18,542 nt of DNA, from positions 1 through 18,542 of IMG/VR virus record IMGVR_UViG_2541047913_000008; one strand, 5' to 3'. Under the pieces are notes generated by a model. It was not told the origin of the DNA and did no database searches. It was given only the letters and a program-made list of their open reading frames with translations. The position numbers were made by a program, and so were the translations under genes. This DNA is from a virus. Taxonomy: Duplodnaviria; Heunggongvirae; Uroviricota; Caudoviricetes. Shown one piece after another: positions 2,717-13,344 of the stretch. The first letter of the stretch is position 1. Each line of letters starts with the position of its first letter.

Positions 2717-2727
2717 GTCCATAAGAA

Positions 2728-2747
2728 AGCCCCTCCGGAGAGGGGCT
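2728..2747. repeat. Perfect 8-bp inverted repeat with 4-nt spacer (AGCCCCTC-cgga-GAGGGGCT)
   Basis: Read directly from the sequence. Could be a hairpin or a dimeric protein-binding site. Confidence 0.5.
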
Positions 2748-3061
2748 GGAGAGTGGCGCTATGTGCCATTGCATGGTGCCGGGTGCCTCCCGGTGAGTTC
2801 AGTATCAGCACCTGAACCCGCACAGAAAGGATAAGGGTCGGTGACAAAACACCAGTTGCTGATTGCCCCTCCGCACAGGGGGATTCACCATGCCAGTTTC
2901 TTTTAACAAACTCCCCGCAAACCAGACAACAGTCAACCGCCTGAATTGTGAGGTATTTAAAAATTTCAACGGGTAACTGATACCCTGCTAATCGCCTGAT
3001 GCTTTCTTTTTCAGCAACGGGGAAGCAACAACCACCACACCCACCAGCCGCCCATTTACCA

Positions 3062-8772: not shown

Positions 8773-8993
8773 GCCACACCTCCCAGACGCTTAAACATTT
8801 TTCCGGAGCAAAAGGCTATAAGCGGCATACTGATGCGGTAATTACGGCCCAGCGGTTCACAAATCACCTTCTGACATTCACGGTCAACCAGGCTGACACG
8901 TAGAACATGCCCTGCAGGCGTGGTGTACCACTGACCAGGACGAGGACAACGGAAAGTCTGATTGGTAAACCGTTTGAAAATATTCCGGATCAT
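8769..8993 (-). CDS. Hypothetical protein
   Basis: 74 aa. ATG overlaps the stop of the Rha-like gene (ATGA). Confidence 0.4.
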   Translation of the reverse strand: MIRNIFKRFTNQTFRCPRPGQWYTTPAGHVLRVSLVDRECQKVICEPLGRNYRISMPLIAFCSGKMFKRLGGVA

Positions 8994-9535
8994 TTGCGCC
9001 CCCTTACCTCTGAAGGGTTCAGCGACAAATTTATGAGACTGGCCAGTAGCGCCGCGTCGTTGATGCGGTCATACAGACTTACAGCCAGCGGGGATTCGGC
9101 TTTTGCCAACATGGGATAAAGCTGCTGCAGCCAGACCTGATGAATTGATGAAATGTAGGAATAGAGAACGCTGGCGTTATGTGCAACGTCGCTCAGTACA
9201 GAGGGATTTGAAAGCTGTTTCTCCATCTGGTTAAAGGCATTGATGTATGCCTCTTTGAACTGGGCAGCACGTTTACCCGTGAAACCCATAGCAAGAAACG
9301 CAAAGCCGTCGCGGGTTATTTGATAGCAAGGTAGTTTGCGGCCTGTGCAATCGGTGTAATCACTCACCGAAAAATTGCGGGAAGTGAATGATGCAGAGCA
9401 TTCAAGCGTGCGGATCTTTTTCAGTACATCGTCATGACGTTTGGAGAAGAAGTTGGCAACAGCCAGGGATGAAGTAACAGCCTGACCATCAACGATGGCA
9501 ATTTCAGGTTGAGTGAGGGTTGGGATCGTAGCCAT
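8990..9535 (-). CDS. Rha-family phage regulatory protein
   Basis: Motif VTSSLAVANFFSKRHDDVLKKIRTL matches the Rha N-terminal signature. ATG at 9535 has a GGAGG ribosome-binding site. The ORF-track start at 9835 adds 100 residues rich in Ala/Gly/Ser/Pro that do not look like protein, so I prefer 9535. Confidence 0.6.
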   Translation of the reverse strand: MATIPTLTQPEIAIVDGQAVTSSLAVANFFSKRHDDVLKKIRTLECSASFTSRNFSVSDYTDCTGRKLPCYQITRDGFAFLAMGFTGKRAAQFKEAYINAFNQMEKQLSNPSVLSDVAHNASVLYSYISSIHQVWLQQLYPMLAKAESPLAVSLYDRINDAALLASLINLSLNPSEVRGRK

Positions 9536-9699
9536 GATGGCAGCCTCCGTTGACTGTGGAAAACTTCCACCACCGGAGCTGCGAAACTCACTGGTGGCAG
9601 ACTGAACAGGGTTCGCAGTACCGGCGTCAACGGAGACCGGCGAGCCTTTCGGCTCCCCTGCCCAGCCCACCATAATTCTGGCGTGCGTGAGCGCGGACG

Positions 9700-9721
9700 A
9701 TAAAAAAGACGCTGGCGCGTC
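9700..9721 (-). terminator. Minus-strand intrinsic-terminator-like hairpin between the cro-proximal genes and the replication genes
   Basis: On the minus strand: GACGC-gcca-GCGTC followed by TTTTTTAT (plus 9701-9721). Short 5-bp stem. Confidence 0.35.
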
Positions 9722-9918
9722 ATATATCGCCGTTGACAATTCCGGGCTGCGACCCCCGGCACCCGCTTTATAAGGTGCCTGAGCAGTGTAACGTCCCGGA
9801 ATTGCAGAATCAATATTTGGTCTTGAAATGATCATATAGCTGCTGATATCTTTAGAACTGTTCTTGGATGTTTCGGAGCCGTTTTATGCGAAACAGCTCC
9901 CCGTTATTGATGTTGAGT

Positions 9919-10938: not shown

Positions 10939-11071
10939 AACAAAACACCAATATTAACTTTATAAATCAAGAATACATCAAGTTTAAATTAACATGCAAG
11001 TTACAAAAGGATCGAATACACTAAAATCAAGTAAAGATTTATCCTTGTAAAGAAACCCACAGGATTTGGTC
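10939..11071. promoter_or_regulatory. Divergent cro/cI control region (right-operator-like promoters and operators)
   Basis: 133-bp AT-rich spacer between divergent cro-like and cI genes. Repeated motifs AAATCAAG / CATCAAG / AAATCAAG and CTTGTAAAG. Confidence 0.55.
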
Positions 11072-11761
11072 ATGAAGAACGTCAAAAACACGGAAAATCG
11101 AATAGCCGCGATGCTGAAAGCAAAAGGATGGACTCAGGCTCAACTGGCCCGCAAGTTAGGTGTGAGTGCGCAATCAGTGCAGTACTGGACAACAGGAAAA
11201 ACATTTCCACGGAGTGATAAGCTCGCGCATTTATCAGAGATTAGCGGTTATCCACAATCCTGGTTCTTAGGTGAAGACTCCTCACCAACCTTTTCCTCGC
11301 AAGAGAAACACCAGACAAGAACAGATAGCGTCGTATTTAATGTCCTTGATGTTGAGTTTAGTTGCGGTGATGGAACTCATGTCCGTGGTGACTTGATAGA
11401 TGTAGTGCGCTCAATAGAACTTGATCCTGAATATGCCCGACGTCTTGTTGGAAATCGGGCATTCAAAAATATAGAAATAGGTAACGCCAGAGGAGACAGT
11501 ATGGCTCCCACAATCTCACCTGGCGACCTTCTTTTTCTTGATAAGACAGTAACTTATTTTGATGGCGATGGTATTTATGCATTTTGTTTTGATGGAGAAT
11601 GCTACGTGAAAAGGCTTCAAAAAATTGGAAGCAAAATCATGGTGTTATCTGATAACCCCAATTATCAACCATGGAGCATCGAAAAAGAGGGGTTAGCTCT
11701 GCTTTATATCCAGTCTAAAGTGATCTCATCAGTACCATTCAACATAAACAGATTTGGTTAG
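11072..11761 (+). CDS. cI: cI-type prophage repressor (N-terminal helix-turn-helix plus C-terminal S24 LexA-like autopeptidase)
   Basis: Helix-turn-helix WTQAQLARKLGVSAQSVQYW; S24 motifs GDSMAPTISPGDLLFLD and YVKRL. ATG at 11072 with AGGA ribosome-binding site; the track start at 11066 is a TTG. Confidence 0.85.
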   Translation: MKNVKNTENRIAAMLKAKGWTQAQLARKLGVSAQSVQYWTTGKTFPRSDKLAHLSEISGYPQSWFLGEDSSPTFSSQEKHQTRTDSVVFNVLDVEFSCGDGTHVRGDLIDVVRSIELDPEYARRLVGNRAFKNIEIGNARGDSMAPTISPGDLLFLDKTVTYFDGDGIYAFCFDGECYVKRLQKIGSKIMVLSDNPNYQPWSIEKEGLALLYIQSKVISSVPFNINRFG

Positions 11762-11772
11762 TCTTTGATTTT

Positions 11773-11797
11773 AACGGGCTTTGCCCGTTTTTTTCTG
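11773..11797 (+). terminator. Intrinsic terminator after cI
   Basis: AACGGGC-tttg-GCCCGTT followed by TTTTTTT. Confidence 0.65.
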
Positions 11798-11824
11798 CCT
11801 GAAATATACGATATCAATTTTTTC

Positions 11825-11853
11825 TTGACAGCCTGTTTCCCAAAACATAATAT
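11825..11853 (+). promoter_or_regulatory. Near-consensus sigma70 promoter (candidate left promoter or cargo promoter)
   Basis: -35 TTGACA (11825-11830), 17-bp spacer, -10 TAATAT (11848-11853). Palindrome ATCAAttataacTTGAT lies just downstream (11860-11876) and shares ATCAA/CTTGAT with the cro/cI control region. Confidence 0.55.
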
Positions 11854-11906
11854 CGCACCATCAATTATAACTTGATTTGATTCAATTTAAAATTGTTGGC
11901 GGATAT

Positions 11907-12455
11907 ATGAAGACACTAAAAGCAACTCCAGAAACAACTAATTTTATCAACTGCGGCTGTGTTACGCTTAAGGGCTTAGAACTTGATTCCTTTGCATTAA
12001 ATATTGCAAATTTGCTAAGTGCTGTACGCACATTCCATCTTCTGGATTGTGCTCGCTCAAAGGAACTGGGCATTGAGGTAATGGAATTTATCCATGAATA
12101 TGCTCTATCTGCTGCTTCTCCTGCACAGCAAAAACAATCCTTCCCTGAAAGCTGGCTGGTTAACCTTCGCACCCAACGCGAAGCCTGCGGCTTAACAACC
12201 GCCGAACTCGCCAGGCTGCTCGATCTCGATGAAGAAATTATCATCCAGTGGGAGAGCGGAGAGTACGAACCAACCATCAGCATGCTTATCCCACTGGCAA
12301 ATATTCTTGGCTGCGATCCGATGTGCCTGTTAACTGGTGAGGTTACTCCTCCGGAGAAACCAAAAAGTGAGGAGCAGCAACACCATGACGCATCTCAACA
12401 AGTTTGCCCCTTATCTCGCGAAGCTCTTCTGCGGAAGAACCAATACCAATGGTGA
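11907..12455 (+). CDS. XRE-family helix-turn-helix protein with unrecognised ~95-aa N-terminal domain
   Basis: ATG at 11907 (the track start at 11877 is a TTG). C-terminal helix-turn-helix LTTAELARLLDLDEEIIIQWESGEYEPTISMLIPLANILGCDPMCLL. First gene after the promoter. Confidence 0.55.
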   Translation: MKTLKATPETTNFINCGCVTLKGLELDSFALNIANLLSAVRTFHLLDCARSKELGIEVMEFIHEYALSAASPAQQKQSFPESWLVNLRTQREACGLTTAELARLLDLDEEIIIQWESGEYEPTISMLIPLANILGCDPMCLLTGEVTPPEKPKSEEQQHHDASQQVCPLSREALLRKNQYQW

Positions 12456-12583
12456 CATAATCGCCGCTTCGCCCTTCAAGGTACATGCGAACATTTTTAT
12501 CAATCATTGCGGAAACAGTCTCAATATGAAAACACTTCTGAGACTCGCTATATAGCAGAACATATAAGTCAGCTGAGGAAGCC

Positions 12584-12949
12584 ATGAAAAAGTTCGAAAA
12601 CATAACTGTTCTCCATGTTGATGACTTTGATTATACAAACCCGGAACTTCTCCCGGAGGTTGTAAAGGCAATAGATGTTGCCGATATAGTGATTAGAGAA
12701 AAGAGAATTGTCAAAAACAGGCTCGCATGCACTTCAGGAGCAATGACAGAAACAACCTCACAGCAAGATAATTACGAAGGCATTTGTCTGGAGCCTGATT
12801 CATTTGCGGTAAATGTTTATCATTTATTGCATGCAACACAGGTATTACATATGTCCAGTAATCACGAAACGAAAACACTCGGCAGCGAAATTCTGAGTTT
12901 TGCATGTGAGTATACAAAAGCTGCTGCCGAAAAAGAATTAGCGCAATAA
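12584..12949 (+). CDS. Hypothetical protein, no family recognised
   Basis: 121-aa ORF. ATG with GAGGAA ribosome-binding site 5 nt upstream. Confidence 0.5.
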   Translation: MKKFENITVLHVDDFDYTNPELLPEVVKAIDVADIVIREKRIVKNRLACTSGAMTETTSQQDNYEGICLEPDSFAVNVYHLLHATQVLHMSSNHETKTLGSEILSFACEYTKAAAEKELAQ

Positions 12950-13027
12950 CAACAAATATGCCCTGAACGTTTATTGCGGTTTTATCGCCGGGGATTGTTA
13001 CAACCTTAATCCACAGGAGGCTTTATT

Positions 13028-13141
13028 GTGACTTTTATAAAGAATATGGCATCACACAAGACCGCCTGCCTTATTGCACAATACGGTGAAAATTACATGC
13101 ATATTGCCTGCTTATTTCTGCGTAAAGCATACGGGAGATAA
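13028..13141 (+). CDS. Small upstream ORF (37 aa) with perfect Shine-Dalgarno sequence; possible leader peptide
   Basis: AGGAGG 7 nt upstream of GTG at 13028; stop 2 nt before the ATG of the next gene. Not in the ORF track because it is short. Confidence 0.3.
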   Translation: MTFIKNMASHKTACLIAQYGENYMHIACLFLRKAYGR

Positions 13142-13143
13142 TA

Positions 13144-13344
13144 ATGCATCAGAAAACAGCAGAACACGAACAAACCAGAGTATTGCTGACCATCAAAAAC
13201 GGGAAAGTAATATTCATTCGCCATGTTCATGACGATGAACTTGTAGGAAATCTTTCAACATTCCTGTTTATTGCAGAAAAGGCAGGATATGACGTTATTG
13301 CACCAGCAGATGAAGATGAAGATGAAGATGAAGATGAGGAATAA
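13144..13344 (+). CDS. Small protein with poly-acidic C-terminal tail
   Basis: 66 aa, GGAGA ribosome-binding site. C-terminus ADEDEDEDEDEE is encoded by a GATGAA tandem repeat. Confidence 0.5.
   Translation: MHQKTAEHEQTRVLLTIKNGKVIFIRHVHDDELVGNLSTFLFIAEKAGYDVIAPADEDEDEDEDEE
13309..13338 (+). repeat. In-frame hexanucleotide tandem repeat (GATGAA x4 plus GATGAG)
   Basis: Read directly: gatgaa gatgaa gatgaa gatgaa gatgag at the 3' end of the 66-aa gene. Confidence 0.9.

Follow-up and report, generated by a model that had tools for sequence, protein, structure and literature searches.

In lambda-type phages, the repressor gene and its terminator are followed directly by the promoter pL with its operator oL and by the gene that opens the early-left operon (N in lambda, gene 24 in P22); this operon runs on to xis and int. 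In Bacillus subtilis, the XRE repressor SinR and its small antagonist SinI carry a common helical-hairpin oligomerisation domain. In this study, we examined the unit that follows the repressor gene cI (11066-11761, with HTH_3 and Peptidase_S24 domains) in IMG/VR record IMGVR_UViG_2541047913_000008, an 18,542-nucleotide stretch from a virus of the Caudoviricetes, hereafter called the window, to which positions and strands refer. The unit occupies the same position as lambda pL/oL and N, is transcribed in the same direction, and consists of a promoter, a gene for an XRE-family regulator (open reading frame 1, ORF1), a gene on the opposite strand (the antisense gene) and a gene for a second protein (ORF2). 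With somewhat better than even confidence, we read it as the opening part of an early-left operon in a lambdoid prophage that lacks a recognisable N gene, made up of a pL equivalent, an XRE regulator, its partner ORF2 and an embedded antisense gene.

The window represents an Escherichia coli lambdoid prophage. The 2.4 kb around the cI-proximal unit aligned from end to end with Escherichia phage PhiR49_2 at 99% identity; of 5426 complete E. coli genomes, 381 contained matching prophages. Next to mlrA, E. coli O111:H8 strain 8E carries a near-identical lambdoid prophage. One of its strands carries Q, replication genes, two Rha/Ant-like genes and cro, and the other carries cI, the regulator and ORF2 genes, ea22-like genes, xis and int. 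A first-pass annotation had listed cI, a terminator, a promoter, ORF1, ORF2 and two alternative ORFs at the junction between them, all of which were found where it had placed them. It had also proposed ORF1 and ORF2 as variable accessory or defence cargo, and this proposal fared differently, as described below.

The regulator gene and its promoter

ORF1 (11907..12455, plus strand, ATG at 11907) encodes 182 amino acids and is annotated by PGAP as a helix-turn-helix (HTH) domain-containing protein (WP_000854063.1). Residues 87-138 (12165-12320) scored 40.4 bits (E 3.1e-10) with the Pfam family HTH_3 (PF01381), for which the cut-off is 23, and the protein matched phrog_4836, labelled 'CII-like regulator', over its full length (E 6.4e-77). 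When the PDB was searched with the family profiles of ORF1, ORF2 and the antisense protein, only HTH domains were retrieved, and the P22 C2 repressor was among the matches of the ORF1 profile. Judged by these matches, ORF1 is an XRE HTH DNA-binding regulator, in agreement with the first-pass reading of an XRE HTH joined to an N-terminal domain. That annotation had been unable to place either plus-strand protein and, indeed, no characterised relative of ORF1 or ORF2 was found. The N-terminal domain of ORF1 contains a predicted helical hairpin (residues 24-70, 11976-12116), which most likely mediates dimerisation or partner binding.

A protein search returned 152 relatives of ORF1, nearly all of them from E. 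coli prophages. The commonest form of the family has 230 amino acids and two tandem HTH domains and is present on more than 1000 contigs. Thirty alignment columns within and just after the first HTH were invariant, and the N-terminal part of about 70 residues fell into at least six unrelated-looking types. Among 80 IMG/VR loci and the reference phages, the N-terminal type was fully linked with the repressor type (36/36, 26/26, 7/7 and 6/6 loci). Since each N-terminal type occurs with one repressor type only, the N-terminal domain of ORF1 travels with the immunity segment; the mosaic junction lies in the conserved HTH of the regulator.

The regulator gene follows the repressor gene in phiP27, ASU11, PPyecE_EH1910 (EH1910), Stx2 phages, the 80 IMG/VR loci, and prophages of Salmonella and Citrobacter, where the same gene lies downstream of short Gifsy-type repressors. 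Because the regulator gene keeps this position behind repressors that belong to at least four immunity types, in three to four genera, it is a backbone gene rather than cargo. In the comparison of the slot among relatives that the first-pass annotation had suggested, the regulator was conserved, and only an antisense cassette of about 244 bp varied.

An intrinsic-terminator-like hairpin (11773..11789, plus strand; a 7-pair stem with 5 G-C pairs and a 3-nt loop, followed by a T run) ends the cI transcript. Behind it lies an intergenic sigma-70 promoter, TTGACA-17-TAATAT (11825..11853, plus strand), which had been described as near-consensus. It showed 10 of 12 matches and was the best site of a 4.5-kb scan; no other strong candidate was present on the plus strand from cI to the left-arm genes, and promoter-like matches overall were not enriched (8 found versus 8.9 expected from shuffles). 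In EH1910, both hexamers and their spacing were identical to those of the window, and the surrounding DNA was 71% identical.

Two candidate repressor operators accompany this promoter. The site ATCAATTTTTTCTTGAC (11813..11829) overlaps the -35 hexamer and is conserved in EH1910. The site ATCAATTATAACTTGAT (11860..11876), which has palindromic half-sites, covers about +1 to +17 of the promoter and is likewise kept in EH1910, which has ATCAATTATATATTGAT at the corresponding position. In the cI-cro spacer and the post-cI spacer (244 bp), ATCAA/TTGAT half-sites occurred 7 times, as compared with about 1.0-1.2 expected (p ~1e-4). The two candidate operators are 47 bp apart, and two ATCAAG sites in the cI-cro spacer (10977 and 11026) have a similar spacing of 49 bp. 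In phiP27, which has a different repressor, a different motif, AAAGTATCA, was common to the cI-cro spacer and the spacer upstream of the regulator gene; the two copies agreed at 15 of 17 bases, as compared with a shuffled maximum of 14. Since these motifs vary with the immunity type while the regulator HTH does not, we assigned them to cI/Cro and not to ORF1. The promoter at 11825-11853 is thus probably the pL equivalent, and probably repressed in the lysogen rather than active. Because it is bracketed by operator-like sites of the cI-cro type, it would be expected to be shut off by cI in the lysogen and to fire on infection or induction.

ORF2, the cassette and the antisense gene

ORF2 (12584..12949, plus strand) encodes 121 amino acids and matched phrog_5451 over its full length (positions 1-121/121, E 1.7e-83). 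PGAP calls only a 68-amino-acid form that begins at Met54 (12743), and EH1910 carries, as the counterpart of this call, a separate 66-amino-acid form that consists of the hairpin only. In Salmonella and Citrobacter, the length of 121 amino acids and the N-terminal motifs ITVLH, IDxADIVI and VKNR are retained at 45-67% identity. Taken together, these comparisons identify ORF2 as real at its full predicted length of 121 amino acids. The AlphaFold2 model comprised a beta-alpha-alpha-beta-beta domain, a disordered linker and a two-helix hairpin, which correspond to a small alpha/beta domain at residues 8-45, residues 49-69, and residues 69-115 (12788-12928), respectively.

When residues 24-70 of ORF1 were compared with residues 69-115 of ORF2 by BLASTP, 43% identity was obtained (E 1e-9). 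PHROG cross-matches between the two proteins agreed with this result, and the hairpin helices predicted by AlphaFold2 coincided in both. The C-terminal hairpin of ORF2 is a paralogue of the N-terminal domain of ORF1. Furthermore, ORF2 hairpins of class A resembled the type A N-terminal domain of the regulators at 43-48% identity, and those of class C resembled type C at 33-53% identity. Strict cognate pairing of the ORF2 hairpin with the hairpin of the resident regulator was tested for and was found not to be general.

The window ORF1 is a one-HTH form in which the second HTH of most relatives is gone. The segment 12288-12319 aligned with the terminal part of each of the two HTH repeats in ASU11, as would fit the removal of the second HTH by unequal exchange between the repeated GCDPMWLLTG ends. 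Past LLTG, the ORF1 frame has another 38 codons, which run through the complement of the antisense gene (residues ~145-182, 12339-12452). In the relatives of ORF1, the protein ends a few residues past LLTG, keeps only 20 or 33 residues of the tail, or shifts into the other plus frame (P0004 and P0120). Homology between the window and one locus, L095, stops at 12338 and resumes at 12583; this delimits an insertion cassette of about 244 bp (12339..12582) that holds most of the antisense gene. In L095, which has no cassette, the regulator stop TGA overlaps the ORF2 start ATG (ATGA), and ORF2 is translationally coupled to the regulator. The variable tails of the relatives and the cassette-free locus show that the last ~38 codons of ORF1 are incidental read-through, a by-product of cassette insertion after LLTG. 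Within the loci compared, the cassette is the only variable or accessory piece of the slot.

The antisense gene (12343..12603, minus strand) encodes 86 amino acids, or 80 when read from Met7 (12585). Either ATG 12603, which has a GGAGA Shine-Dalgarno sequence at 12614-12610, or Met7, where both the PHROG profile and the cassette boundary begin, is a candidate start. The gene lies head-to-head with ORF2 and tail-to-tail with ORF1. Its product matched phrog_6104 across the full profile (positions 1-80/80, E 3.2e-49). Homologues with 58-95% identity were found in E. coli, E. albertii, Salmonella enterica and Citrobacter freundii, always on the opposite strand between the regulator and ORF2. Over residues 7-49, where no plus-strand gene overlaps, the substitutions by codon position were 8/1/18, 6/3/18, 4/1/9 and 10/2/18. 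This concentration at third codon positions indicates purifying selection in the antisense frame. A full-length antisense ORF was present in 77 of the 80 IMG/VR loci (86 amino acids in 76 and 88 in one), even where the ORF1 tail was truncated or frameshifted, and the gene was disrupted in phiP27. These results characterise the antisense ORF as a genuine protein-coding gene under purifying selection, as judged from substitution patterns and conservation.

A profile search of 1.84 billion proteins yielded 372 distant relatives of phrog_6104 with the motif YVLLYSxxQxCFHIE, mostly of 60-100 amino acids. The gene neighbourhoods of distant members were uninformative, since their contigs measure 1-3 kb. 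Twenty of them were scanned, and no Pfam match was obtained outside one fused HTH. In one member of the representative library (P0192), the phrog_6104 domain is fused N-terminally to an XRE HTH, a hint that members of the family act together with HTH regulators; an XRE HTH fusion was not seen in nine other long relatives. The antisense gene was unannotated by RefSeq/PGAP in every complete E. coli genome record examined. The sequence TTGACA-17-CACTAT at 12714-12686 is conserved; because it lies within conserved ORF2 codons, its conservation is uninformative as to an antisense promoter.

The plus-strand ORF at 12385-12555 is a shadow reading frame opposite the antisense gene. Its codon position 1 coincides with antisense position 3, the most variable one, and a stop interrupts the frame in ASU11. 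In databases it was encountered only as the frameshifted regulator tail (P0004 and P0120), and its product matched no family in Pfam, PHROG or PADLOC. We therefore rejected it as a gene. The first-pass annotation had left the gene structure ambiguous at this junction, with both alternative ORFs plausible; one of them, the antisense ORF, proved to be a real gene and the other did not. On the comparative evidence, ORF1, ORF2 and the antisense ORF are real genes, and the plus-strand ORF is none.

The proposed operon and its alternatives

In the early-left operon that we favour, the first product of the pL equivalent would be ORF1, an XRE regulator with a near-invariant HTH and a hairpin that belongs to the immunity segment and would serve dimerisation or partner binding. 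ORF2 would be the normal downstream partner of the regulator, carrying the paralogous hairpin behind its small alpha/beta domain. We propose, tentatively and by analogy, that ORF2 may act on the regulator through the shared hairpin, in mixed oligomers or by competition for the same partner, as SinI acts on SinR. The cassette-encoded phrog_6104 protein would be made from the opposite strand, and transcription from pL would run against the antisense gene.

Several results weigh against this reading or parts of it. The best whole-site match between the two spacers of the window was 14 of 17 bases and the shuffled 95th percentile was also 14, so that it did not exceed the controls; both candidate operators flank the promoter core and do not cover it. 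The operators were assigned from motif enrichment only. The structure models were weak: the N-terminal domain of ORF1 in the single-sequence AlphaFold2 model had a predicted local distance difference test score (pLDDT) below 50, and the ORF2 model had a mean pLDDT of 64. When the ORF2 model was used for fold searches of PDB and BFVD, as the first-pass annotation had suggested, nothing significant was obtained (best E 1.3 and 0.14), and the hits were generic helical hairpins only. At most loci, a class-A ORF2 adjoins a regulator of another N-terminal type (B, C or D), and this weakens the SinI/SinR-like idea; the hairpin could be a recycled dimerisation module without cross-talk between ORF1 and ORF2. 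In addition, no promoter for the antisense gene passed the promoter scan.

We also considered an extended role of the hairpin, namely that it is a specificity module and that ORF2 is a SinI-like decoy, which titrates regulators with a matching hairpin, including those of co-resident or infecting phages, while the phrog_6104 protein adds a second, oppositely transcribed modulator. This idea, by analogy with SinI, seems improbable to us; if true, it would mean regulatory interference from prophage to prophage.

The location of the unit directly after cI, behind a terminator and with a strong promoter of its own, together with two uncharacterised proteins, could instead mean that the promoter is active in the lysogen and that the ORF1-ORF2 pair is a moron-like module with an accessory, exclusion or defence function, comparable to rexAB, sieB or BstA. 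Other phages do carry cargo at the equivalent position: the immunity region of CP-933P, for example, harbours the paaR2-paaA2-parE2 system (PMC8630535), and prophages encode the defence family BstA (10.1101/2020.07.13.199331). However, the regulator holds its position across the immunity types and genera given above, operator-like half-sites flank the promoter, no other pL candidate is available, and the genes further downstream keep this orientation as far as xis and int, the layout of an ordinary left operon. When the locus was searched with PADLOC-DB 2.0, ORF1 matched RmrA, HTH_VI and capH only over residues 86-156, that is, through a generic HTH, ORF2 had no match, and the antisense ORF matched only Cas11a at E 0.03, which is noise; a known defence system was therefore rejected. 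Neither ORF2 nor the antisense protein matched Pfam or NCBIfam. We accordingly regard such a module as decidedly improbable, and the cargo proposal of the first-pass annotation was not borne out for ORF1 and ORF2. Among the findings that this annotation had named as speaking against cargo, conservation as a fixed backbone was largely found, and homology to an N-family antiterminator was not.

The antisense cassette gene may have an accessory role. The gene could be real cargo, expressed in the lysogen for exclusion, defence or host modulation, and its convergent, head-to-head arrangement could form a transcriptional-interference switch with pL. The discrete nature of the cassette, which is present or absent between homologous loci and disrupted in phiP27, is consistent with this, as is the purifying selection; the gene points away from pL and could be transcribed while pL is silent, and its large family is known as phrog_6104 only, with no Pfam or other curated-family match. 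On the other hand, no promoter passed the scan and the candidate -35/-10 lies inside conserved ORF2 codons, no PADLOC defence match was obtained, and the fusion of P0192 to an XRE HTH points to a regulatory rather than an effector role. We judge this explanation unlikely.

A toxin-antitoxin-like pair, with an HTH antitoxin (ORF1) and a small toxin (ORF2), would explain the tight coupling where the cassette is absent (the ATGA overlap), and ORF1 does show weak HTH similarity to antitoxins of the HipB, MqsA and PezA types. These matches are nevertheless generic to the HTH and far below the curated cut-offs (HipB-type, 23.5 bits versus 71.65; MqsA-type, 20.8 versus 61.8), searches of Pfam, NCBIfam and PADLOC gave no toxin family for ORF2, and a domain common to both proteins is typical of regulator/anti-regulator pairs, not of toxin/antitoxin pairs. 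A type II toxin-antitoxin system was rejected on these grounds, and we consider a pair of this kind barely credible. An N antiterminator was also rejected, since no N or antiterminator match was obtained for ORF1, ORF2 or the other left-arm ORFs scanned.

If the early-left reading is correct, a large group of lambdoid prophages from E. coli and Salmonella, Stx2 phages among them, opens the early-left operon with an XRE regulator instead of N; part of this regulator belongs to the immunity segment, and the partner ORF2 copies that part. The targets of the regulator, once learned, would fill a gap in the early programme of medically relevant phages. As a lead for a new defence system, the locus is weak. 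For annotation, the conserved phrog_6104 gene is missing from the RefSeq E. coli records examined and ORF2 is called too short, and neither the ORF1 tail nor the plus-strand ORF at 12385-12555 should be taken as functional.

Neighbouring elements and comparison with known systems

Downstream of ORF2, a GTG-initiated ORF of 37 amino acids (13029-13142, plus strand; MTFIK...KAYGR) is preceded by a strong AGGAGG Shine-Dalgarno sequence and is annotated in PhiR49_2 and EH1910, and not by PGAP. The following gene (13144-13344, plus strand) encodes a 66-amino-acid protein of phrog_340 with an acidic C-terminal tail, DEDEDEDEDEE, and weak similarity to anti-repressor C-termini. An Rfam scan of 11800-12960 gave no RNA family. 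Elsewhere in the window, Rfam matches to a C4 antisense RNA (78.8 bits) and to the Hfq-binding RNA isrK (58.7 bits) lie at 9590-9778 (minus strand), directly preceding a 281-amino-acid Rha/anti-repressor-like gene (8990-9835, minus strand). This arrangement resembles the anti-repressor control modules of P1 c4-ant or Gifsy-1 IsrK type, in the rightward operon. The small RNA family STnc100 was matched over its full length at 2717-2922 (minus strand; 143 bits, E 4e-32), between a 665-amino-acid phrog_143 gene and the Q/HNH region. In the prophage of strain 8E, a DUF262 protein and a HEPN-like nuclease lie beyond Q, next to a cytosine methyltransferase (L001 1-1319). This pair is defence-like and is located at the other end of the early region, where the window carries different genes.

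Like lambda pL/oL, the window promoter is flanked by motifs common to the cI-cro region, and like N, ORF1 has an N-terminal part that varies with the immunity region. However, ORF1 is predicted to be an XRE DNA-binding protein, whereas N is an arginine-rich RNA-binding antiterminator, and the left operon of the window, unlike that of the lambda type, has an oppositely oriented gene embedded.

As in SinR and SinI, one protein combines an XRE HTH with a two-helix domain, and the product of a tightly linked neighbouring gene carries a homologous two-helix domain (43% identity here). The hairpin is C-terminal to the HTH in SinR, whereas it is N-terminal in ORF1; ORF2, unlike SinI, has an extra alpha/beta domain, and its hairpin class often mismatches the resident regulator. 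Neither ORF1 nor ORF2 matched the Pfam SinI family at E up to 1. The likeness to SinR/SinI is therefore an analogy and not family membership.

Lambda CII and YdaT are, like the ORF1 family, HTH regulators of lambdoid prophages. YdaT is the CII equivalent of CP-933P and has a POU-like HTH fold (PMC9986795), and the ORF1 family often has tandem HTH domains. The genes for CII and YdaT belong to the rightward operon, where they follow cro, whereas ORF1 is located on the side of cI and its transcription runs leftward. With ORF1, no Phage_CII or YdaT profile match was obtained (Pfam, E up to 1), and this assignment was rejected. The label 'CII-like regulator' of phrog_4836, which goes back to lambda CII and YdaT, is an annotation habit and not evidence.

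A literature search with the accession numbers, the phage name and 'CII-like regulator' found no study of these genes. Their direct homologues lie in the same order in phiP27 (L10, L09 and L08), PhiR49_2, Stx2 phages (LC5678xx series) and ASU11 (gp50-gp51). The regulator L10 of phiP27 has another N-terminal type, L09 is a different ORF, and the antisense gene there is the disrupted one mentioned above. The regulators of ASU11 and EH1910 have two HTH domains, and ORF2 of EH1910 is the hairpin-only form. The HTH is nearly identical in these phages, and ORF2 is 95-98% identical to phiP27 L08 and ASU11 gp51.

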